From positions 1,469 to 65,468 of the forward strand of contig JAJVLF010000013.1 of NCBI GenBank assembly GCA_029255845.1: a DNA stretch of 64,000 bases, written 5' to 3'. Every line of letters begins with the position of its first letter. Position 1 is the stretch's first letter. This document shows positions 1 to 63,370 of this stretch, piece after piece. Source of the stretch: Campylobacterota bacterium. Lineage in GTDB: Bacteria; Campylobacterota; Campylobacteria; Campylobacterales; JAJVLF01. The notes below the pieces were generated by a model. The model had not been told where the DNA came from. It ran no database searches and saw only the letters and a program-made list of their open reading frames with translations. The position numbers and the translations under genes are program-made.

Positions 1-94
1 ATACGGTGTAGCCGTAACTACATCTATTTTATAAAAATTGCTATAAGGCTAAAATATAATATTAGCTATTTATTTTGAATTAATAGAGGTTCCC
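1..94 (+). mobile_element. Foldback MITE family A, partial copy cut by the window start (central hairpin plus one arm)
   Basis: Equals the reverse complement of 3208-3301 bar 1 nt. Ends TTGAATTAATAGAGGTTCCC followed by TTAA (95-98). For MITEs the strand field is the strand on which arm mismatches become G:U. Confidence 0.85.
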
Positions 95-3207: not shown

Positions 3208-3368
3208 GGGAACCTCTATTAATTCAAAATAAATAGCTAATATTATATTTTAGCCTTATAGCAATTTTTATAAAATAGATGTAGCTACGGCTACACCGTA
3301 TTTTATAAAAATCACTCTAAAACTAAAATCTAACATTATCTAAATTATTTGAATTAATAGAGGTTCTC
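3208..3368 (-). mobile_element. Foldback MITE family A, complete 161-bp copy
   Basis: GGGAACCTCTATTAATTCAAA...TTTGAATTAATAGAGGTTCTC. Arms pair over about 70 nt around a TGTAGC-TACG-GCTACA centre. Flanked by TTAA (3204-3207) and TTAA (3369-3372). Confidence 0.9.
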
Positions 3369-7545: not shown

Positions 7546-7558
7546 TTTAGAGGTTCCC
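7546..7558. repeat. Solo terminal stub of MITE family A/B (TTTAGAGGTTCCC + TTAA)
   Basis: 13-nt match to the element right terminus, between the SDR stop (7545) and the prs stop (7559-7561, inside the TTAA). Confidence 0.5.
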
Positions 7559-8540: not shown

Positions 8541-8600
8541 GGAAACCTCTAAAAGTATAAAATAAAGCAGATAATAATCTATTGATAAAAAACACTTCTA
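8541..8600. repeat. Degenerate left-arm remnant of MITE family B
   Basis: GGAAACCTCTAAAAGTATAAAATAAAGCAGATAATAAT resembles GGGAACCTCTAAAAATACAAAATAAATAGATAATAT. Preceded by TTTA. No matching right arm. Confidence 0.45.
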
Positions 8601-8677: not shown

Positions 8678-8692
8678 GGGAAACTCTAAAAT
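8678..8692. repeat. Second solo left-terminus stub (GGGAAACTCTAAAAT) preceded by CTTAA
   Basis: Similar to the family B terminus GGGAACCTCTAAAAAT. Lies just 3' of the DUF4149-like gene. Confidence 0.35.
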
Positions 8693-9191
8693 CACTTCTG
8701 CACAGATTGTATAGCTTTAGTTAAAAAAATAATTCCCGCTCTAATAATAAGTAAAAATTTTATAACCTCTAAAATACCATATATAAAATGATAATAACTT
8801 TCAGGCAAAGGCTCATTTGATATAACCATATCAGCTCTCTCCATAAGAATAGGTAAAAGCCAGATATTTTGTATGATAAAAATGCTTATTGGTAATAGAT
8901 ATAAAATCCATATTTTTCTATTAGGTTTTATAAAAAACAATGAAGTAATAATTAAGGAAGATATTATCCATTCCATAATGCTTAAGGCTTTGAATATTAT
9001 CTTGCCTATTCCTAGCCCTAATGCTGTCGTTATATTAGGAGCTTGAAATTTTAATGGGGCTTCCATAAAAGAAATGCTAAAAATTGAGCCTACCCATATA
9101 AAGAGACCAATGCACTTCTAATTTGCATTGGTCTCATAAAGGTTAAACTTATGATTAATACTTGTAAATATACTTGTTTTTTATCTGACAT
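8692..9191 (-). pseudogene. DUF4149-like small membrane protein gene split by a 33-bp mini-MITE
   Basis: Removing 9103-9135 plus one ATAAA copy (38 bp) joins MSDKKQVYLQVLIISLTF (ATG 9189-9191) in frame to IWVGSIFSISFMEAPLKF... With the insert the 5' frame stops after about 33 codons. The track ORF 8692-9066 is the 3' part. Confidence 0.65.
9103..9135. mobile_element. MITE family C, 33-bp minimal derivative
   Basis: GAGACCAATGCACTTCTAATTTGCATTGGTCTC (12-bp stem). Flanked by direct ATAAA (9098-9102 and 9136-9140). Confidence 0.85.
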
Positions 9192-12243: not shown

Positions 12244-12698
12244 AAAAAGATATAAAGCTATATATAGATAATCTACCTCCTAAAAGAGCCGAAGCTATTA
12301 TCAAGCTAAGGCAAATTATAATACAAAATATTCCAGAAGGGTTTGAAGAAACTATGAATTACAATCTTCCTTCTTTTGTGGTTCCTCATTCCATTTATCC
12401 ATCTGGGTATCATTGTGATAATAAACTCCCACTACCTTTTATTAGTATAGCTTCACAAAAACATTTTATATCATTGTATCATATGGGCATTTATAGTGAT
12501 ATAAGTTTATTAGAGTGGTTTAAAACTGAATATGCAAAAGTAGTTGACACTAAATTAGATATGGGAAAATCATGCATAAGATTTAAAAATATAAATAAAA
12601 TTCCTTTTGATTTAGTGGGAAAGTTAGCTACAAAAATGACGGCTAAAAAATGGATTAGTATTTACGAGAAAGAAAGACAAAAGCAATCTCAAAGTTAA
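12240..12698 (+). CDS. DUF1801 (YdhG-like) domain protein
   Basis: 152 aa. TTG start overlaps the fumC TGA (ATTGA). Weak family recognition from the N-terminal pattern. Confidence 0.55.
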   Translation: MKKDIKLYIDNLPPKRAEAIIKLRQIIIQNIPEGFEETMNYNLPSFVVPHSIYPSGYHCDNKLPLPFISIASQKHFISLYHMGIYSDISLLEWFKTEYAKVVDTKLDMGKSCIRFKNINKIPFDLVGKLATKMTAKKWISIYEKERQKQSQS

Positions 12699-12964
12699 TT
12701 ATTAAGTAATATTTTCTTTGTAATCCCTTATATTTAGGGTGTTTTTGTTATTCTAAAGCTAGACCCCTAAATAAGGTTATAAGTTTTATTTTATCTATTT
12801 TTATGTTTTTTTTAAGCTAAAAAATGACTTTTTATAGAAATAAATATTACAAATAAGTGTCAATATTAGGGGGTAAAAATTTTTATTTATGTTTTTTTTA
12901 AAATTAATAATTATAAAAAGTGTTGATTGATAGAATACTCCTAAATTTCATATATGGATATTAA

Positions 12965-15353: not shown

Positions 15354-16238
15354 ATGACTTTCTCAAATATACTACTAAAACTACAAGAATATTGGGCATT
15401 ACAAGGCTGTAATATATTACAGCCTTATGATATACCAAGTGGAGCAGGGACATTTCATCCATCAACTATGCTTAAAAGCCTTGATAAAGATGATTATTCT
15501 TGTGCTTATGTAGCACCTAGTAGAAGACCAACAGATGGGCGATATGGCAAAAATCCTAATAGGCTAGGAAGCTATTATCAATTTCAAGTAATTATAAAAC
15601 CAAGCATAGATAATATCCAAGAGCTATATTTAAAAAGCTTAGAATATCTAGGATTAAATATCCAAGAAAATGATATAAGATTTGTAGAGGATAATTGGGA
15701 ATCTCCTACCTTAGGAGCATGGGGTTTAGGATGGGAAGTATGGCTTAATGGAATGGAAGTAACTCAATTTACATATTTCCAGCAAGTAGGTGGAATAGCA
15801 TGCGAAAATGTATCTGTAGAAATAACCTATGGCACAGAAAGATTAGCTATGTATTTGCAAAATGTAGATTCTATATTTGATATAGTATGGAATAAAACAA
15901 AAGATAAAACTAGCACTTATAAGGACATTCATTTAATATCTGAGCGAGAATTTTCAAAGTATAATTTTGAGATAGCAAATGTAGAAAAATTATTTCAGCA
16001 TTTTGAAGATGCTAAAAATGAATGTCTGTATATTTTAGATAATAATCTTCCTTTACCTGCTTATGATCAAATTCTTTTTGCTTCTTATTTATTTAATATA
16101 TTAGATGCAAGAAAAGCAATTTCCGTTACTCAAAGGCAAAACTATATCCTTCAAATTAGAGATTTATCTAGTAAATGTGCTAGTCTTTATAAATCTTTAG
16201 AGGATGAGAGAATTGAAATTATTAACGGAAATCTTTAA
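15354..16238 (+). CDS. glyQ: Glycine--tRNA ligase alpha subunit
   Basis: 294 aa. Highly conserved GlyQ sequence ([10 protein letters not shown]..., [20 protein letters not shown]). Confidence 0.95.
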
Positions 16239-16266
16239 AAACACCCTCACTATTTATAAAACTTAA

Positions 16267-16427
16267 GGGAACCTCTATTAATTCAAATAATTTAGATAAT
16301 GTTAGATTTTCGTCTTATAGTGATTTTTATAAAATGCGGTATAGCCGTAGCTATATCCATTTTATAAAAATTGCTATAAGGCTAAAATATAATATTATCT
16401 ATTTATTTTGAATTAATAGAGGTTCCC
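16267..16427 (+). mobile_element. Foldback MITE family A, complete 161-bp copy
   Basis: GGGAACCTCTATTAATTCAAATAATTTAG...TTTGAATTAATAGAGGTTCCC. Flanked by TTAA (16263-16266) and TTAA (16428-16431). Lies 3' of glyQ. Confidence 0.9.
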
Positions 16428-16534
16428 TTAAGTATCAGGTAATAAAAAATTAACTTTCCCTCAATTTTCAGAAAACATCTTAAATCTTAACTTAACAAGA
16501 TAGGTGAGACTAAACTCTAATATCTTATTCGGAC

Positions 16535-16552
16535 ATGGGACTTTAGTCCCAT
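16535..16552. repeat. Solo hairpin ATGGGAC-TTTA-GTCCCAT resembling the IS200 subterminal hairpins
   Basis: 7-bp stem. Compare TATGGACTTTCAGTCCATA (49445-49463) and CGGACTTTCAGTCCG (49417-49431) at the IS200 right end. Confidence 0.4.
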
Positions 16553-16571
16553 CTTTAAAAGATACAAAAAA

Positions 16572-16961
16572 CTATCCTTTAACTTTCAAAGACAACAAAA
16601 ACCTATCTAAAATAATATAAGCAGATAAAGAATCTATCCTCCCATCCTTTTTATGCTTAAAAATACCTTTACTTAATTCCTTAGCCTCAAAAGAAGAAAA
16701 ATCTTCATTTTGCCATCTTATCTCACCTTTAAAGTCTAAAAGAGATATAAAATGTTTTATTCTTTTTTGCATATTATTTTTATCTTCATCGAGAGGTAAG
16801 CCTACCACTAGTAGATTTATATTATATTCATTTAGTGATTTTAGCACATCCAAGGAAGCTTGATCTCTATTTTTTCTTATGATTGGTTCTATGGGAATGA
16901 GGATATTTTCTAAATAGATTGCTAAGCCTATTCTTTTTAGACCTACATCTATGCTAGCTAT
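16572..16961 (-). CDS. ruvX: Holliday-junction resolvase-like nuclease RuvX/YqgF, start codon unresolved
   Basis: The track ORF (16572-16853, TTG) lacks the N-terminus. The catalytic N-terminal motif IASIDVGLKRIGLA is encoded in frame upstream. The frame is open to 16985 but contains no ATG/GTG/TTG. Confidence 0.7.
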   Translation of the reverse strand: MASIDVGLKRIGLAIYLENILIPIEPIIRKNRDQASLDVLKSLNEYNINLLVVGLPLDEDKNNMQKRIKHFISLLDFKGEIRWQNEDFSSFEAKELSKGIFKHKKDGRIDSLSAYIILDRFLLSLKVKG

Positions 16962-16977
16962 GTTTTGTTTAGTCTGT

Positions 16978-17424
16978 TTATACAGTTACATTAAACCTTC
17001 TGTAGTTATCTACTGGAACAGGCTCTTTCATTATACCTTTTGCATCCATTACTTCTTTTATATTTGATACCATTTCATTTACATATACATTTACATTTTT
17101 AGCTTTTTTGGAAAAGTTATCTATATTTAAAGTATTTTCTATTTGGTTTAAAAGCTGTGTGTCAGTATTTCCAAAGATAGCTTTTTTGATATTTTGTGCA
17201 TTTAAGTGACTTTTATCGTAAAGCTTTTGCTTGATTTCTGTATTAGTAGGTTTTGCTTGAGGAGAGTTTTTAATATCATCGACTAAAACTTTTTGACCTG
17301 ATTTTACAACTTCTATATTAGAAGTTGATTGAGGGTCATTTAGGGCATTAGGATGTTTTGATAAAGCATTTTTATTGTATGCAGATGCAACATTTTGTGT
17401 ATTATAAGCGGACTGAATACTCAA
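16978..17424 (-). CDS. Hypothetical protein
   Basis: 148 aa. TTG start 7 nt after GGAGG. No recognisable domain. Confidence 0.5.
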   Translation of the reverse strand: MSIQSAYNTQNVASAYNKNALSKHPNALNDPQSTSNIEVVKSGQKVLVDDIKNSPQAKPTNTEIKQKLYDKSHLNAQNIKKAIFGNTDTQLLNQIENTLNIDNFSKKAKNVNVYVNEMVSNIKEVMDAKGIMKEPVPVDNYRRFNVTV

Positions 17425-17487
17425 ATCAAAACCTCCTTTAGAAATATTAAACGAATTATAATATTTTTTTACTTAAACAAAGTTTAA

Positions 17488-17648
17488 GGGAACCTCTAAA
17501 AATACAAAATAAATAGATAATATCATATTTTCACTTTATGATAATTTAAAAATATTAGATGTAGCTACGGCTACACCGTAATATTTTAAAATCACCATAA
17601 AGCAAAAATCTGACACTATCTAAATTATTTGTATTTTTAGAGGTTCCC
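17488..17648 (-). mobile_element. Foldback MITE family B (sub-family of A), complete 161-bp copy
   Basis: GGGAACCTCTAAAAATACAAA...TTTGTATTTTTAGAGGTTCCC. Flanked by TTAA (17484-17487 and 17649-17652). Followed by a GGGAACGG stub. Confidence 0.9.
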
Positions 17649-17743
17649 TTAAGGGAACGGTGTATCTTAAATGTCTAGTCCTTGAATAAAAAAGTATTTT
17701 AAGAAATCTTTTTCGTAAAAAAATTAAAATATGGGGATATTAA

Positions 17744-18496
17744 ATGAAAACAATATTATTTGTTATAGTTGGGATGTTATTAGTAGGATGTGGTAGCTCT
17801 GGAAACAATAATGGTTCTGGAAATACTGGTGGTGAAGCTTCAATAAAAAAGGACAAAGAGCAAGCAACAGACAATACTAATAAAACCTCTTATGAGACAG
17901 TTCAATATAAAGCTACGATAAAAACTATATGGACAGCAGAAAACTTTGCTACAAATTTTCCAAGTGGGAGACATTTTTCTCAAGTCATAGGGATGACACA
18001 TAATGAAAATATCAAATTATTTAATGTCGGCTCTAAAGCAACTAATGGTATTAAAGAAATGGCAGAAACAGGAAAAACTACCATAACAACAAATGAAATT
18101 AAAAACTATGTTTCTAATAAAAATGCAGGACTTGTCATAAAAGGCTCTTCACTTTCTTCAAGTGTCGATACCGTAAGTTTTAATTTTAATATTAGCTCTA
18201 ATCATAGCTTAATATCTATAGTAAGTATGATAGCTCCTAGCCCAGATTGGTTTATAGGGATAAATTCTTTAAATTTGATGGAAGATGGGGAATGGATAAA
18301 AGAAAAAATAATAGATTTAAAAGTCTATGATTCTGGAACTGATAACGGAAATATATTTACTTCATCAAATGAAGCAACAACCCCACAAGAAAACATTACT
18401 AGATTAAGCACTTCTTCTAGTGATACTGATTTTCAAGATGGAAAACATAGAAGCTCTAATAACTTTAGGGAACCTCTATTAATTCAAATAATTTAG
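17744..18496 (+). CDS. Spondin_N-domain lipoprotein with MITE-derived C-terminus
   Basis: Lipobox LLVGCGSS. Spondin_N-like pattern (IWTAENFATNFPSGRHFSQVIGMTHN ... SPDWFIGI). The last 9 codons (REPLLIQII) and the stop are encoded by MITE 18468-18628. Confidence 0.7.
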   Translation: MKTILFVIVGMLLVGCGSSGNNNGSGNTGGEASIKKDKEQATDNTNKTSYETVQYKATIKTIWTAENFATNFPSGRHFSQVIGMTHNENIKLFNVGSKATNGIKEMAETGKTTITTNEIKNYVSNKNAGLVIKGSSLSSSVDTVSFNFNISSNHSLISIVSMIAPSPDWFIGINSLNLMEDGEWIKEKIIDLKVYDSGTDNGNIFTSSNEATTPQENITRLSTSSSDTDFQDGKHRSSNNFREPLLIQII

Positions 18497-18628
18497 ATAA
18501 TGTTAGATTTTAGTTTTAGAGTGATTTTTAGAAAATACGGTGTAGCCGTAGCTACATCTATTTTATAAAAATTGCTATAAGGCTAAAATATAATATTAGC
18601 TATTTATTTTGAATTAATAGAGGTTCCC
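18468..18628 (+). mobile_element. Foldback MITE family A, complete 161-bp copy
   Basis: Flanked by direct TTTA (18464-18467 and 18629-18632). Inserted 3 codons before the original stop of the Spondin_N gene. Confidence 0.9.
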
Positions 18629-18732
18629 TTTAACCACATATAAAAACATCTATGTTAGTGGCTCAATTTTTAATAAATAAATTTATCATTAGACTTCTTG
18701 CAAAACCCATCAAATTGGATATATGAGTTATA

Positions 18733-18893
18733 GGGAACCTCTATTAATGCAAAATAAATAGCTAATATTATATTTTAGCCTTATAGCAATTTTTATAAAA
18801 TAGATGTAGCTACGGCTACACCGTATTTTATAAAAATCACTCTAAGACTAAAATCTAACATTATCTAAATTATTTGAATTAATAGAGGTTCCC
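18733..18893 (-). mobile_element. Foldback MITE family A, complete 161-bp copy
   Basis: Inverted relative to 18468-18628 and 104 bp away. The flanks TATA and TTTA are not identical. Confidence 0.85.
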
Positions 18894-19347
18894 TTTAATG
18901 ATAATTTATGCTTGGTGTCTATAAGAGTTTTTCTACTGTTAAATGGGAAAACAGTATGTTTGAGTAAGCTTTTTAGCTTTCCCTCTAAGAAGTCCCTCTC
19001 TAAAGTTAATTCACCTACTTTTTTAGCCATAGAGTCTTTATCTCTTTTTAGAACTTCTATTGTTTCTTTATATTCTCGGACTACTACACTTTTATCAAAT
19101 GCTAGGCTCATATTGTCTAAGAATTGTTTTTTCCAATCTCTTAGGCTTTTTGGTAATATTTCATACTTACTAGCTATCTCATTTAATGTTTGTTCACATT
19201 CTAAAACTTCTAATACTAGTTTAGATTTGAAATCTGCTGTGTACTTTTTTCTTTTTGTGCTCATTGTTTTTGTCTCCATTTTTTATGTTTTATTTTATCA
19301 TTTTGGAATAAGGAAATTCTTATTTTTGGTTACAATTATGAGGGACA
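18894..19347 (-). mobile_element. IS3-family insertion sequence remnant (left end + orfA only)
   Basis: OrfA HTH region MSTKRKKYTADFKSKLVLEVLECEQTLNEIASKYEILPKSLRDWKKQF...ERDFLEGKL. The minus-strand terminus begins TGTCCCTCATAATTG at 19347. Homology stops at MITE 18893. No orfB. Confidence 0.75.
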
Positions 19348-19352
19348 TTATA

Positions 19353-19432
19353 GGCTATACCGCATTTTATAAAAATCACTATAAGACGAAAATCTAACAT
19401 TATCTAAATTATTTGGATTAATAGAGGTTCCC
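19353..19432 (-). mobile_element. Half copy of MITE family A (from the central loop to the right terminus)
   Basis: GGCTATACCGCATTTTATAAAAATCACT...TTTGGATTAATAGAGGTTCCC. Breaks in the central hairpin, 5 bp from the IS3 terminus. Confidence 0.8.
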
Positions 19433-19447
19433 ATAAAAAGGATTAAT

Positions 19448-19951
19448 ATGTCATGTGATTTATGCAATAGCGAAGAGGAATTATCAGAATATGTGGTAGC
19501 CCCAAAAGAAGATACAATTACAATCTGCAAGCATTGTGCAAATAATATAAAAAATCCAAAAGAGAATGAAAATCATTGGAAATGCTTAAATGACAGTATG
19601 TGGAGCGATTCTCCCGCTGTGCAAGTAGTAGTATTTAGATTACTCTCTCACTTGGGTGAGCAAGATAAATTAGATATGATGTATTTAGAAGATGAAACAA
19701 AAGTATGGGCTAAAGAGGATTTAAGGACATCAAATAAAGAGCCTGTGAGAGATTCTAATGGCACAATTTTATCAGAGGGTGATTCTGTAAGTATCATTAA
19801 AGATTTACCTGTTAAAGGAGCAGGATTTACTGCCAAACAAGGAACCACAGTAAAAAATATCCGTATGGTGCCAGATGATAATACACATATTCAAGGTCGT
19901 GTAAATGGGACTATTATATTTATTGTTTCTGCATTTTTGAAAAAATTATAA
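19448..19951 (+). CDS. phnA: PhnA/YjdM-family zinc-ribbon protein
   Basis: N-terminal CDLC...CKHC zinc ribbon. C-terminal PhnA domain (DSNGTILSEGDSVSIIKDLPVKGAGFTAKQGTTVKNIRMV). Confidence 0.85.
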   Translation: MSCDLCNSEEELSEYVVAPKEDTITICKHCANNIKNPKENENHWKCLNDSMWSDSPAVQVVVFRLLSHLGEQDKLDMMYLEDETKVWAKEDLRTSNKEPVRDSNGTILSEGDSVSIIKDLPVKGAGFTAKQGTTVKNIRMVPDDNTHIQGRVNGTIIFIVSAFLKKL

Positions 19952-19963
19952 AACTTACTAAAA

Positions 19964-20021
19964 GAGACCAATGCAAATTAGAATCACCCTATCTTATGCA
20001 CTTCTAATTTGCATTGGTCTC
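19964..20021 (-). mobile_element. MITE family C, 58-bp internal-deletion derivative
   Basis: Both termini plus TCACCCTATCTTATGCAC from the right interior. Direct TAAAA flanks (19959-19963 and 20022-20026). The SNF2 stop codon (20021-20023) spans its edge. Confidence 0.85.
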
Positions 20022-23382: not shown

Positions 23383-23544
23383 GAGACCAATGCAAATTAG
23401 AACCACCTAATCTAGGGAGCTATAAGACATCATAAAGCAATTTTTTTGTTAAAAACATAGCTTTTGCTATGATTTGAACAAAAAAATCACTTTCTAATAT
23501 CTTCTATCACCCTATCTTAGGCACTTCTAATTTGCATTGGTCTC
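23383..23544 (-). mobile_element. MITE family C, full-length 162-bp copy
   Basis: GAGACCAATGCAAATTAGAA...TTCTAATTTGCATTGGTCTC. Direct TACTA flanks (23378-23382 and 23545-23549). 170 bp upstream of the SNF2 start. Confidence 0.9.
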
Positions 23545-23764: not shown

Positions 23765-23840
23765 AAATTTAGTTTTAGAGTTATATAATATCACTTTTAA
23801 TTCAATCCTAATTAAATTATTTGTATTATTAGAGGCTCCC
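23765..23840. repeat. Degenerate/rearranged remnant of MITE family A/B
   Basis: ...CTAATTAAATTATTTGTATTATTAGAGGCTCCC followed by TTAAG. Explains the N-terminal part of track ORF 23576-23905. Confidence 0.45.
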
Positions 23841-25908: not shown

Positions 25909-26018
25909 TAAAACTTTAATGTTCCTTTAAGCCTAGATTAATTTAATTGCTATACCATTACATCGGAATAAAAATTTTTAATTATTCCGAGATTAAAAAA
26001 AAGAAAAGGTTTTATTGT

Positions 26019-26471
26019 ATGAAGAAGATTTTATTTTCGTTAAGTTTGATGGTTGCTACTGCAACTGCTGTTTTAGGTGCTGACTGGAGTTTTAATGGTA
26101 TGTTTAAAGACATGAAAGATACTGTTACTGATGTAAGTGATGATATGAGAGATAGCACTAAGTCTATTTCTAAAGATTCAACTGAGCATTCTAAAAGTGC
26201 TGAAAGAACAACTTCAAATGTTTCTAGAGATTTAAAAGATAGCGAAATAGCTACTTCAAAAGATGCTAGATTAACTGGAACTAATATGAGTGATAATGCT
26301 AGAATTTCACTAATTCAGTTAAGTAAAGATGCTAGAGTTGCATTAGAAAAAACTGTTAAAGATGCTTTAGAAGCTTCAAAAACAGCTTCTGGTGATGCAA
26401 AAGATACATTTATCAAAATAGCTCAAGAAGCTCAAGATGCGATAAATGATATTGATGATAAAGTAAAATAA
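26019..26471 (+). CDS. Small secreted D/K/S-rich protein, paralog 1
   Basis: Signal peptide MKKILFSLSLMVATATAVLGADW. Collinear with 27111-27566 over the whole length. The track start 25947 is probably too far upstream. Confidence 0.7.
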   Translation: MKKILFSLSLMVATATAVLGADWSFNGMFKDMKDTVTDVSDDMRDSTKSISKDSTEHSKSAERTTSNVSRDLKDSEIATSKDARLTGTNMSDNARISLIQLSKDARVALEKTVKDALEASKTASGDAKDTFIKIAQEAQDAINDIDDKVK

Positions 26472-26652: not shown

Positions 26653-26981
26653 GGGAACCTCTAAAAATACAAAATAAATAGATAATATCATATTTTCACT
26701 TTATGAGACCAATGCAAATTAGAACCACCTAATCTAGGTAGCTACAAGACATCATAAAGCAATTATTTTGTTAAAAACATAGCTTTTGCTATGATTTGAA
26801 CAAAATAATCACTTCCTAATGCCTTCTATCGACCTATCTTAGGCACTTCTAATTTGCATTGGTCTCTTTATGATAATTTAAAAATATTAGGTGTAGATAC
26901 GGCTACACCGTAATATTTTAAAATCACCATAAAGCAAAAATCTGACACTATCTAAATTATTTGTATTTTTTAGAGGTTCCC
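26653..26981 (-). mobile_element. MITE family B copy carrying a nested family C MITE
   Basis: Direct TAAA flanks (26649-26652 and 26982-26985). Collinear with 17488-17648 except for the 162-bp insert plus a 5-bp duplication. Confidence 0.9.
26705..26866 (-). mobile_element. MITE family C, full-length copy nested in family B
   Basis: Direct TTTAT flanks (26700-26704 and 26867-26871). The uninterrupted target CACTTTATGATAATTT is present in copy 17488-17648. Confidence 0.9.
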
Positions 26982-27110
26982 TAAAAAATAAACACTTAAT
27001 AGTGTTAACTTTAAATCTCAATATAAGCTCAAATTAACTTTACTTCATTATAATCTCAAACGAAATAATAATTTATAATTATTTCTAAATTTAAAAAAGG
27101 TTTTATTAAT

Positions 27111-27566
27111 ATGAAAAATATTTTATTGTCGTTACTTTTAATGGTTGCGAGTGCAACTTCTGTATTTGGTGCTGATTGGAGCATGAATAATATGTTTAAA
27201 GATATGAAAGAGGCTGTAACTGATGTAAGTGATGATATGAGAGATAGTGTTAAAACTATGTCAAATACTTCGGTAGAGCATTCTAGAAGTGGTGAAAGAA
27301 CAACTACTAATGTTTCTAGAGATTTCAAAGATGCTGAAATATCTACTTCTAAAGATGCTAGATTAACTGGAACTAATATGAGTGATAATGCAAGAGATTC
27401 ATTAGTTCAATTAAGTAAAGATGCTAGAGCTGCATTAGAAAAAACAGTTAAAGAAGCTTTAGAAGCTTCAAAAACTGCTACTGGTGATACGAGAGATGCA
27501 TTTATAGATATTGCTAGAAATGCTCGTGAAGCTATAGATGATATTGATGACAAGAAGAAAAAATAA
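27111..27566 (+). CDS. Small secreted D/K/S-rich protein, paralog 2
   Basis: Signal peptide MKNILLSLLLMVASATSVFGADW. Shares long identical stretches with paralog 1 (SKDARLTGTNMSDNAR, LEKTVK.ALEASKTA). Confidence 0.75.
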   Translation: MKNILLSLLLMVASATSVFGADWSMNNMFKDMKEAVTDVSDDMRDSVKTMSNTSVEHSRSGERTTTNVSRDFKDAEISTSKDARLTGTNMSDNARDSLVQLSKDARAALEKTVKEALEASKTATGDTRDAFIDIARNAREAIDDIDDKKKK

Positions 27567-39615: not shown

Positions 39616-39652
39616 GGGAACATCTATTAATTTTGAATTAATAGATGTTCCC
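39616..39652. mobile_element. MITE family A, 37-bp minimal derivative (termini only)
   Basis: GGGAACATCTATTAATT-TTG-AATTAATAGATGTTCCC. Both arms carry the same C-to-A / G-to-T change relative to full copies. Confidence 0.7.
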
Positions 39653-60710: not shown

Positions 60711-60872
60711 GAGACCAATGCAAATTAGAACCACCTAATCTAGGGAGATACAAGACATCATAAAGCAATTATTTTGTTAAAAACATAGCTTTTGCTATGA
60801 TTTGAACAAAATAATCACTTTCTAATGCCTTCTATCACCCTATCTTATGCACTTCTAATTTGCATTGGTCTC
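60711..60872 (-). mobile_element. MITE family C, full-length 162-bp copy
   Basis: Direct AACTT flanks (60706-60710 and 60873-60877). Central CATAGC-TTTT-GCTATG hairpin. Confidence 0.9.
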
Positions 60873-61463: not shown

Positions 61464-61745
61464 TTGAATAAAATAATAAAGTGGAATGAAGAAAAAAATC
61501 AACTTTTAAAACTGCAAAGGGGTGTAAGCTTTGATGATGTTCTTAATAAAATTGCAAATAATGAAATATTAGGAAGAAAAATACATCATAATAATGAAAA
61601 TTATTCTAATCAAGAAATTTTCATTTTTGAAATTAATGATTATATTTATTATGTTCCTTTTGTTGAAAATGAAAATGAAATATTTTTAAAAACAATCATA
61701 CCAAGTAGAAAATTAACAAAAGAGCATAAAACAAATGAAAAATAA
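61464..61745 (+). CDS. brnT: BrnT-family (DUF497) type II toxin
   Basis: IKWNEEKNQLLKLQRGVSFDDV matches the W(D/N)E.K...N..KHGVSF.. signature. 93 aa. TTG start. Confidence 0.75.
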   Translation: MNKIIKWNEEKNQLLKLQRGVSFDDVLNKIANNEILGRKIHHNNENYSNQEIFIFEINDYIYYVPFVENENEIFLKTIIPSRKLTKEHKTNEK

Positions 61746-62022
61746 AACAATACTTGACAATGAAGAATTAAAATTATTAGAAGCGATAGAATCAAATGAT
61801 TTTATAGACTCTCCATTAAAAGAGCAAGAAATGATATATTATAAAAATCATGCTAAATATACAAAATCTTTACAAGAAAAAAGGCAAACTACTATTAGGT
61901 TTGCTATTAGTGATTTAGCTATTATTAAAAGTAAGTCGAAAGAGTTAGGGATAGGGTATCAAAATTTAATTCAGGTTTTAGTGCATGATTATGCTCTTGG
62001 GAAGATTAAACTTAATATATGA
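61735..62022 (+). CDS. brnA: BrnA-family antitoxin (CopG/RHH-like)
   Basis: TTIRFAISDLAIIKSKSKELGIGYQNLIQVLVHDYALG matches the BrnA C-terminal pattern. Overlaps brnT by 11 nt. Confidence 0.75.
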   Translation: MKNKTILDNEELKLLEAIESNDFIDSPLKEQEMIYYKNHAKYTKSLQEKRQTTIRFAISDLAIIKSKSKELGIGYQNLIQVLVHDYALGKIKLNI

Positions 62023-62134
62023 TGTTTCCTCTTGTGCTAATTGTGTTCAATGATAGTATATAATCTCGTTCTATCTTTTTTAAGGTATAGCAAGTAAAAA
62101 ATATCTTCTGAAAAATAGGGAAATGATTTGCATA

Positions 62135-63370
62135 TTATATTAAACTATCAATTATTTCATCATCAACTATTAAGTCCCATCTTTCTGACAAAAACAGTAA
62201 TATTTTCTTACTACGATTATCTATAATTTCAGGTGTCCATTCTCCATTTTGACTCACTTCTATTTCGCTATAGCTACCTTTGAAAAATATTTCTTTTTTA
62301 TCATTAAAACATTTATTTTTTAAGCTTGAATTTTTAGAAGTTGACAATAAAACTAAATTACCTAATGCGTGTAATTTTCTACTTCTTTTTTTCCCTATTA
62401 ATTGAGAATAGTTATCTTCCCAACATTTATCTTTTGGGGTTTGTGGGTAGATATGCTCTATCGTTTCTTTATTTATTTCTTCCCACTGTAATTTAATTTC
62501 TCCTTTTGATTTTTCTTGTAAAAATAGTTCATATTCATATAATAAATATTTCAAACCCTTCCAACTATACCAGCCTTCATATTTTTCAAAATGCTCACGA
62601 ATATCATTTTTAAAATTATCTGGTCTTACCCATCTATATACATTATCATCAGAATAAATTTCTTGTTTCATATTATCAATTAATTTATCAATATTTTTAT
62701 TTTCATGAAATTCATTAGCATATTTATAAAATCTACTATCTCCAGCTATTAGACTAATATGCTCATACATTACTTTATGAGAATCTTCTTTAGCTACAAA
62801 TATAAAAGAATGACCACCTTGTAATGCTTCTCTAGCAAATGGCTCATGAGCATATAAATCATCACCTAATAGTATAATGTCTAAATTTAGAAGTTTGTTA
62901 TGCTTTAACCATCTTTTTGAAGCATTAATCTCACAATCTTGTTTCTTAGTTCCATCACTATTTTCTATAAGTTCAGGCATTAAAGAAATAACTTTATTTA
63001 TATTTGGTGATACTATGACTGGAGTAATTGCTTGATGTGAGTATGTTGTTTGTTCATCTTTATATTCTTTGGTTAAACATTTTGAACATTTAATTGTTTT
63101 TGATGAGTGATATCCAGTTCCATCTAATGCAACTAGGTATTTATTCATATGTTTATAAGAGTTTAGTATTTTTGCTTCTTTTAGATAATTTAAACATTCA
63201 TTATATAGAGGTTTTAGACAAATTGGCTCTATAGAGTCAAGTATATCTCTAATATGGTTATCACTTGGTATTTTATCTATACCAAATAAACTATTTGCAT
63301 TATTTCTTCCTTCTTTTTCTTCCATCTTTCTTTGAAACTCTAAAAAACTACTTGATTGCATATGAAACAT
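62135..63370 (-). pseudogene. In-frame chimera: N-terminal half of a DDE transposase fused to the C-terminal DUF1524 (GmrSD-type HNH-like) domain
   Basis: aa 1-205 look like a transposase (DGTGYHSSKTIKCSKC, LLGDDLYAHEPF, FIFVAKEDSHK). aa ~250-411 look like DUF1524 (TIEHIYPQTP...LHALGNLVLLSTSKNSSLKNKCF). The frame stays open upstream to 63499 without a canonical start. Confidence 0.55.

Follow-up and report, generated by a model that had tools for sequence, protein, structure and literature searches.

What placed so many near-identical palindromes in one bacterial neighbourhood, and what kind of enzyme moved them? The question is raised by a 64,000-nt stretch of contig JAJVLF010000013.1 (positions 1,469 to 65,468, forward strand; assembly GCA_029255845.1) from a Campylobacterota bacterium, referred to below as the window. 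Its GC content is 28.4%, and it contains many copies of a 161-bp repeat that is AT-rich (25-26% GC), non-coding and almost fully palindromic, with termini GGGAACCTCTAWWAATWC. [quoted passage not shown] An earlier note made from the sequence alone had read them as a foldback MITE with 4-bp A/T duplications and a transposase elsewhere, a reading borne out by the duplications, by strain polymorphism and by full-length elements with IS5-type ends. The same note had not recognised the element, for which a probable IS5-derived parentage can now be named.

Repeat finding, alignment and blastn of two reference copies locate six complete copies within the 64-kb window, along with about seven that are partial (halves, stubs and one mini-element of 37 bp), and the 18-nt terminus occurs there 16 times at no more than three mismatches, compared with 0.12 occurrences expected by chance. 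The copies form two sub-families. Within sub-family A they are 95-99% identical to one another, whereas A and B are 81% identical and differ at 30 of the 161 positions. The terminal difference between the two (ATTAATTC versus AAAAATAC) is mirrored at both termini, and the terminal 21 nt of the two ends pair perfectly in most copies. At 161 bp the element is too short to encode any transposase. The coordinates first given for the six full copies and for 1-94, 19353-19432 and 39616-39652 are correct, as is the division into A and B by matching substitutions at both termini. Among the stubs proposed at the same time, 7546-7558 is upheld, 8541-8600 is upheld for 8541-8576 and 23765-23840 for 23813-23840; the extension back to 23765 is weak, as is the stub at 8678-8692. 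The members are as follows.

1..94, minus strand: copy of sub-family A of which the window's start leaves element positions 1-94, 98% identical to 18733-18893 over 94 nt, with TTAA after the terminus at 95-98.
3208..3368, plus strand: full sub-family A copy between a MarR-family gene and an open reading frame (ORF) of 519 aa; flanks TTAA/TTAA.
7546..7558, plus strand: 13-nt solo terminus TTTAGAGGTTCCC, then TTAA, between a short-chain dehydrogenase gene and prs.
8541..8576, plus strand: degenerate left terminus GGAAACCTCTAAAAGTATAAAATAAAG, 86% identical to sub-family B positions 1-35.
16267..16427, minus strand: full sub-family A copy 28 bp past the glyQ stop, between convergent glyQ and ruvX; flanks TTAA/TTAA.
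17488..17648, plus strand: full sub-family B copy with termini GGGAACCTCTAAAAATAC; flanks TTAA/TTAA.
18468..18628, minus strand: full sub-family A copy inside a Spondin_N gene; flanks TTTA/TTTA, direct.
18733..18893, plus strand: full sub-family A copy that gives a C-terminal tail and stop to an IS3-like orfA fragment; flanks TATA/TTTA, one mismatch.
19353..19432, plus strand: half copy of sub-family A, its right part (element positions 82-161), lying 15 bp upstream of phnA/yjdM; 94% identity over 80 nt.
23813..23840, plus strand: solo right terminus, then TTAA, 93% identical to sub-family B positions 134-161.
26653..26981, plus strand: full sub-family B copy split by a nested element into 26653-26704 and 26872-26981; flanks TAAA/TAAA, direct.
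39616..39652, unstranded: 37-bp mini-element in which a 3-nt loop separates two 17-nt termini; flanks TTAT/TTCA.

Five of the six full copies are flanked by identical 4-mers, namely TTAA at three of them (3208, 16267 and 17488), TTTA at 18468 and TAAA at 26653. Since TTTA/TTTA and TAAA/TAAA are direct, these flanks are target-site duplications and not extended inverted repeats. Five matches among six copies have a probability of ~1e-9 given the window background of 1.2% for identical 4-mers 161 bp apart, of 1.5e-5 when A/T-only 4-mers are considered (background 7.7%), and of 0.0016 under a model of strong target preference. The flank tabulation and these chance statistics agree with the initial description of five complete copies with identical 4-mers, of which TTTA and TAAA are direct. 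In the mechanism proposed, the transposase would come from a plasmid, from another part of the genome or from a former resident of it. It would bind the ~21-bp termini (GGGAACCTCTAWWAATWCAAA), excise the element and insert it where an A/T-rich site has been cut with a 4-bp stagger, with TTAA favoured and TTAT, TAAA and similar sites used less often; repair would then duplicate the 4 bp. A mobilising transposase gene in the host would be low in GC and have GGGAACCTCTATTAATTC at one end and GGGNAYCTCTAAAAATAC at the opposite end.

The termini point to the parent of the element. A scan for the terminal 21-mer (GGGAACCTCTAWWAATWCAAA) across one genome per species returned at least 80 loci. The matches listed come from Methylococcales, Planctomycetaceae, Nitrosomonadales, Chromatiales, Sulfurovum, 'Deltaproteobacteria', Cytophagaceae, Flavobacterium, Synechococcus, Opitutaceae, Lentisphaeria and others, and most of them are inverted pairs of the terminus 100-200 bp apart, i.e. 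MITEs. In a Methylococcales metagenome-assembled genome (MAG), the 21-mer instead terminates a 1329-bp insertion sequence (IS) that occurs in at least nine copies, with ends GGGAACCTCTATAAATTCAAA and GGGGATCTCTAAAAATACC (for example L025, 2155-3483). Perfect 4-bp duplications flank eight of nine copies (TTAT, TAAA, AGTA, TTAA twice, TTAC, TATA and TTTA), and the 369-aa protein matches NCBIfam NF033581 (IS5_4; E = 2.8e-89), PF01609 DDE_Tnp_1 (E = 1.5e-28) and PF05598 DUF772 (E = 9.2e-22). By tblastn this transposase finds thousands of enterobacterial IS5-type plasmid genes, all at less than 60% identity; the closest annotated plasmid IS, 58% identical, is an unnamed element of Pseudosulfitobacter with ends GGGCATCTCTAAAAATTG and GGGCACCTCGATTTTTG and a CTTA duplication.

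A metagenomic comparison extends the group to 80 loci encoding relatives of the transposase at 56-93% amino acid identity, which represent ~70 ISs of consistent layout and 1.29-1.35 kb in length. Their transposase-distal end, GGGAACCTCTATTAATTGAAA, agrees with the A-type MITE terminus at 20 of its first 21 positions, their transposase-proximal end, GGGCATCTCTAAAAATAC, contains the B-type motif CTCTAAAAATAC, and some members have GGGAACCTCTAAAAAT at both ends. The flanks are A/T-only 4-mers in 76%, though the contigs have 40-60% GC, and TTAA is the commonest. The boundaries of the window MITEs share their termini with these autonomous elements, the 1329-bp Methylococcales IS and the ~70 metagenomic ISs. 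From the end sequences, sub-family A carries the transposase-distal end type of the IS at both termini and sub-family B the proximal type. The same three substitutions that the earlier note saw at both termini thus correspond to the two ends that the parent IS naturally has, one of them repeated in A and the other in B. A single enzyme that handles both IS ends could move A and B alike. The repeats combine small size (within the range of about 50-1000 bp), absence of coding sequence, terminal inverted repeats, fixed-length duplications, multiple similar copies and termini shared with an autonomous IS, the features of a MITE. PLSDB plasmids contain no blastn match to the 161-bp element; IMG/VR viral contigs lack an exact copy of the 21-mer, and JGI metagenome contigs lack one of a family-specific 29-mer. 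L005 (2.3 kb between termini) and L044 (1.3 kb), both from a Planctomycetaceae MAG, were candidates for full-length elements and proved to be separate MITEs flanking ordinary genes.

A different TTAA-targeting enzyme, IS1380/piggyBac-like or IS630/mariner-like, could be considered, as TTAA is the classic piggyBac target site, IS1380 duplications are 4-5 bp long, and the window holds no transposase to settle parentage. Such an origin is extremely improbable. The 21-nt terminus matches the ends of ~80 IS copies, all of which encode IS5_4-type DDE_Tnp_1 proteins; the duplications are 4 bp and variable (TTTA, TAAA, TTAT, TTAC, AGTA), not fixed TTAA or TA; and piggyBac ends start CCC...GGG, the opposite polarity. 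Among 170 loci, searched by tblastn with the IS5-type protein only, no gene of IS1380 or IS630 type lies between GGGAACCTCTA ends.

Whether the family has moved recently can be judged from Logan contigs L084 and L085 (SRR29001134 and SRR29001157), L086 (SRR29001134) and L168 (SRR29001158), the last two being k=31 assemblies. The comparison centres on two features of the window.

17649..18467, plus strand: 819-bp segment with a MITE copy directly at each end, covering the 5' three-quarters of a Spondin_N lipoprotein gene and 100% identical to L084/L085 positions 63-881.
17744..18496, plus strand: truncated Spondin_N ORF of 250 aa (Pfam Spond_N E = 8e-50), whose last nine codons and stop come from the MITE at 18468.

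L084/L085 match the window only at 17649-18467, including one copy each of TTAA and TTTA. Neither boundary of the segment has a MITE in these contigs, and the Spondin_N gene is intact (330 aa). The 250-aa window protein equals a 330-aa member of the same cluster at >=90% identity (P0130) through residue 241 and then diverges at the MITE boundary. MITE presence thus differs between near-identical strains, and the element boundaries are confirmed as first placed, because the identity with L084/L085 ends exactly there. The family has been active recently in this Campylobacterota lineage: it has truncated a lipoprotein gene, it marks strain-specific breakpoints, and it has itself been hit by another MITE. 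The outer flanks differ between the window and L084/L085 at both MITE-free boundaries, which therefore do not constitute a clean empty site; the difference may reflect MITE-MITE recombination after insertion, movement of the block as a unit, or a wrong assembly path. For the composite block at 17488-18628, whose outer flanks (TTAA and TTTA) differ, unit movement is neither supported nor excluded.

Other contigs bear on the integrity of the cluster. L168 reproduces 16404-17512, including the segment 16428-17487, with an A-type end on one side and a B-type end on the other, and so supports the right junction of the 16267 copy and the left junction of the 17488 copy. L086 begins 29 nt into the 3208 copy and from there on matches the window at 99.9% identity. 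Three MITE junctions are thus confirmed as filled by L086 and L168, with partial independence, given that the Logan runs may be the source reads of the contig itself. The right junction of the 17488 copy coincides with the start of 100% identity to the MITE-free L084/L085. Relatives at ~85% DNA identity keep the synteny from the ribonucleotide reductase gene to glyQ and lose it directly after glyQ; the glyQ relatives checked for empty sites (L081, L082, L083 and L170) are uninformative, since synteny ends at that very point. A relative at ~80% identity keeps ruvX and the 148-aa gene beside it and loses homology at 17487, the base adjoining the MITE.

The density and order of five copies in 3.2 kb might then be an assembler artefact, in which distant segments were joined through the 161-bp repeats. 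It is suggested by the identity of the 819-bp segment to contigs from two other runs, which stops exactly at the MITEs with the gene intact there, by relatives that lose synteny exactly at MITE positions, and by the uncultured organism from which the contig comes. We consider an artefact unlikely, as L168, an independent k=31 assembly, and L086 reproduce junctions (again with partial independence), and as both copies bounding the 819-bp segment have matched flanks, which random joins would produce in ~4% of cases even with strong target preference (an estimate from the observed target frequencies). The earlier note had described five copies within 3.2 kb. The copies and their coordinates stand, while independent insertion of all five has to be qualified: the segment order may derive partly from MITE-mediated rearrangement or a repeat-crossing assembly path.

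Several observations weigh against mobilisation of the repeats by an IS5-family enzyme. The check for empty sites in related strains that the earlier note had proposed yielded MITE-free alleles at two boundaries, and no clean pair of filled and empty sites with both flanks shared was found. The 64-kb window contains no IS5-type transposase by tblastn, in agreement with the initial statement that it holds no transposase with matching ends. Full-length ISs with the exact 21-mer occur in one genome only among the matches listed. The sixth full copy (18733), omitted from the first account of the flanks, has non-identical 4-mers. Short metagenomic IS contigs have identical flanks in only 13 of 54 cases, which we assume is probably due to assembly collapse of multi-copy ISs. 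Finally, the targets agree only in part with those of Escherichia coli IS5, whose 4-bp duplications at YTAR sites, TTAA among them (PMC5009759), in themselves speak for an IS5 parent. The commonest target, TTAA, fits this strict consensus, whereas TTTA, TAAA, TTAT and TATA, which are frequent, do not; the IS5 clade with these ends seems to prefer A/T-rich 4-mers more generally than YTAR.

The palindromic structure of the element raises a further question, that of its function. As single-stranded DNA it folds into one long hairpin (dG -38.4 kcal/mol, z = -10). In an alignment of eight sequences with 66 stem pairs, 11 pairs have changes on both sides with pairing kept. The covariation score is 0.107 compared with 0.044 ± 0.008 for shuffled alignments (0 of 500 shuffles reach it), and at most three double-change pairs remain when pair partners are slid by 1-3 columns. 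Double changes between A and B are spread along the whole stem, not confined to the termini, and two further compensatory pair changes, close to the centre, are peculiar to the 16267 copy. A and B have the same stem mismatches (positions 22-23, 25-26, 35 and 39), and their ancestor was therefore already an imperfect hairpin. For the same reason, an origin of each sub-family by fold-back copying of a single IS end is poorly supported. Quasi-palindromes tend to be 'corrected' by template switching, and the paired changes could reflect either such correction or selection on structure at the level of the element or the host.

With GGTGTAGCCGTAGCTACATC followed by a T run, mirrored on the opposite strand, the centre of every copy is scored as a two-way intrinsic terminator. 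The region 16000-19700 contains 10 predicted terminators where 1.4 are expected, nearly all of them in MITEs, and 23 promoter-like sites where 22.3 are expected, that is, no enrichment. The repeats could on these grounds be immobile, host-conserved elements, such as intergenic two-way terminators or REP-like palindromes, that were copied by recombination; the terminator scores on both strands of a central GC hairpin with A and T runs, the 11 covarying pairs, which resemble a structural constraint, and the intergenic position of most copies would all fit. This is nevertheless very improbable. The 4-bp duplications are direct and of variable sequence, and the termini are identical to IS5-family ends. 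One copy lies inside a coding sequence that is intact in another strain. Copies occur in both orientations, including between divergent gene starts, where a terminator is useless. No Rfam family matches anywhere in the window at gathering thresholds, and REP/RAYT and IS200/IS605-type elements make no duplications. Under mobilisation by an IS5-family enzyme, terminator activity of the MITE centres would plausibly be a side effect, and the copies probably also affect transcription of their neighbours.

Two other classes of palindromic element were considered and rejected. Integron attC sites, which go with an adjacent integron integrase and a cassette array, do not fit, as the ends GGGAAC...GTTCCC have the wrong purine/pyrimidine pattern relative to RYYYAAC...GTTRRRY and the neighbours are housekeeping genes (glyQ, ruvX and the ribonucleotide reductase gene). 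REP/BIME or IS200/IS605-type palindromic elements, which insert beside a fixed tetranucleotide without duplicating it and have a RAYT or TnpA(Y1) partner, do not fit either: here a 4-mer of varying sequence is repeated on each side, and the transposase of the partner IS is of the DDE type.

The terminus is shared well beyond the window. Among the matches listed from other genomes, 47 short elements bounded by it have identical 4-mer flanks in 30 cases and flanks differing by one base in 10, with TTAA the commonest. At least 15 MITE families with unrelated cores, in ~7 phyla among the matches listed, share the nearly invariant 21-nt IS end; the genomes are all MAGs, and some of their taxonomic labels may reflect binning errors. 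Hairpins are strong in several of these families, not in all. Two of the relatives of the window at ~85% DNA identity carry foldback versions of its family of 75-100 bp, one with TTAA/TTAA flanks. A more ambitious possibility, suggested by the paired changes along the stem and by the two-way terminator but regarded here as doubtful, is that the hairpin family has been selected as a mobile structured element, either because the enzyme prefers hairpin or cruciform substrates or because the host gains portable terminators or RNA stabilisers, with the IS5 clade acting as a promiscuous, pan-bacterial generator of MITEs whose pairs shuffle gene fragments. If that were true, one IS5 clade would have repeatedly spawned hairpin MITEs with unrelated cores.

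Two sets of shared-terminus MITEs have related cores. IS5-type-ended MITEs in a Gammaproteobacteria MAG (L015, 371-499) and a Nitrosomonadales MAG (L013, 2032-2141) have cores from a GTCATTCCSGCGAARGCSGGAATCCAG palindrome; being common to two orders, this core may itself be a separately spreading module. The core of a MITE in Flavobacterium sp. NORP82 (L061) clusters with the family of Planctomycetaceae NORP218, from the same study, and Sulfurovum sp. NORP77 (L006) is also involved. The likeness between NORP82 and NORP218 could result from horizontal spread or from contamination during binning.

The surroundings of the repeats are those of an ordinary chromosome, with genes for ribonucleotide reductase, glyQ, ruvX, phnA/yjdM, an SNF2 helicase, RNase J, ilvD, prs and fumarase. 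The nearest named relatives of the glyQ product (~75-77% identity) belong to Arcobacteraceae, to Campylobacterota and 'Epsilonproteobacteria' MAGs, and to a hydrothermal-vent metagenome. In the cluster the order is glyQ, the MITE at 16267, ruvX with the 148-aa gene (minus strand), the MITE at 17488, the Spondin_N lipoprotein gene, the MITE at 18468, 104 bp, the MITE at 18733, an IS3-type orfA fragment, the half MITE at 19353 and phnA. Two ORFs end in MITE sequence, that of Spondin_N in the 18468 copy and the orfA fragment in the 18733 copy. The latter and the element nested in the 26653 copy are the remaining mobile features.

18848..19279, minus strand: IS3-type orfA fragment (HTH_Tnp_1 E = 1.2e-10) between a full and a half MITE.
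26705..26866, plus strand: nested second-family element of 162 bp with terminal inverted repeats GAGACCAATGCAAATTAGAA, inside the sub-family B copy at 26653; 5-bp duplication TTTAT.

The orfA fragment (18848-19279, with 19300-19352) is an orphan that lacks an orfB, and the MITE supplies its final 15 codons. It has the look of an IS3-family element inserted at a MITE centre and truncated afterwards; it belongs to another transposon and is not the mobilising enzyme. The second MITE family, 162 bp long with perfect 20-nt termini GAGACCAATGCAAATTAGAA, has copies at 23383-23544, 26705-26866 and 60711-60872, a 58-bp mini-element at 19964-20021 and solo ends near 9135, 9589 and 29354. All four bounded copies have perfect 5-bp duplications (TACTA, TTTAT, AACTT and TAAAA), and the terminus resembles GAGACCTTTGCAAAA, the end of IS5-family ISNme1/BrickBuilt (PMC4596501).

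Other observations concern individual genes. The ruvX gene (16572-16975, minus strand) reads through ~135 aa (…NIASIDVGLKRIGLA…) with no ATG, GTG or TTG near the N-terminus, and the first listed start leaves 93 aa, which suggests a non-standard or damaged start codon. A 152-aa DUF1801 ORF (12254-12706) lies between the fumarase and ribonucleotide reductase genes; the syntenic relative L083 (85% DNA identity) has only ~22 bp there, and the ORF is therefore a lineage-specific gain or loss of a small gene. On either side of the nested-MITE site, two 300-nt stretches (25994-26293 and 27086-27385) are 82% identical; the neighbouring ORFs that contain them (25947-26471 and 27111-27566) match no Pfam family and look like tandem paralogues. 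At 61464-63370, an ORF for a BrnT-like toxin (weak, below the Pfam cutoff) and a small ORF adjoin a GmrSD-type restriction endonuclease gene, with the second-family MITE at 60711-60872 just upstream; this may be a small defence or toxin-antitoxin islet.

A search of the literature for MITEs in Campylobacterota, Arcobacter or Sulfurovum found no linking paper, and a text search for GGGAACCTCT in papers found unrelated primer sequences only. The 161-bp family was previously unnamed, with no description in the literature searched, and now gains a probable parent, an IS5-group IS, and a proposed mechanism. Nothing in it overturns the current understanding of MITEs; it is an ordinary kind of element, well preserved. 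What lifts it above routine is the clean mapping of A and B onto the ends of the IS, covariation along the full stem and the reuse of the 21-nt end by so many families with unrelated cores. The mapping of A and B onto the two ends of the parent IS, together with that reuse, makes it a tidy case for studying the origin of MITEs and the reasons why hairpins are so frequent among them. In practical terms, metagenome assemblies from this group will be broken or mis-joined at 161-bp repeats that occur about once in every 8 kb.

How, then, does the family compare with known systems? With the IS5 group (E. coli IS5, NF033581 'IS5_4') it shares ends that start with GG, 4-bp duplications and TTAA, which lies within YTAR. 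It differs in its size, 161 bp without a transposase as opposed to ~1.2-1.3 kb, and in its targets, which are looser than YTAR and include any A/T-rich 4-mer. The GGGAACCTCTA end of window-type elements also differs from that of E. coli IS5, which is GGAAGGTGCGAA. Bacterial MITEs derived from the IS5 family are known, among them BrickBuilt, MITE239 and MITE293 of Porphyromonas gingivalis and ATR of Neisseria (parent ISNme1), which are short, non-coding, multi-copy and nesting, with terminal repeats equal to those of resident ISs (PMC4596501). Their ends are of the GAGACCTTTGCAAAA type, like those of the second family in the window and unlike those of the first; their duplications are irregular and they are not full-length foldbacks. 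Hairpin MITEs of bacteria that act on transcripts include the Correia elements of Neisseria, enterobacterial ERIC, pneumococcal RUP/BOX/SPRITE and the QMITEs of Coxiella, which are AT-rich and intergenic, form stem-loops, cluster and insert into one another, in some cases with terminator-like hairpins (PMC10969869). These families have different parents and duplications, and no sequence similarity to the window element. The parent of RUP is IS630, and the Correia duplication is TA. MITE-flanked cargo has a counterpart in the class 1 integrons of Acinetobacter that are flanked by MITEs, as cited in PMC10969869. In the window, two copies bracket an 819-bp segment whose outside neighbours differ in another strain, but the pair has TTAA on one outer side and TTTA on the other, and the cargo is a gene fragment, not an adaptive cassette.

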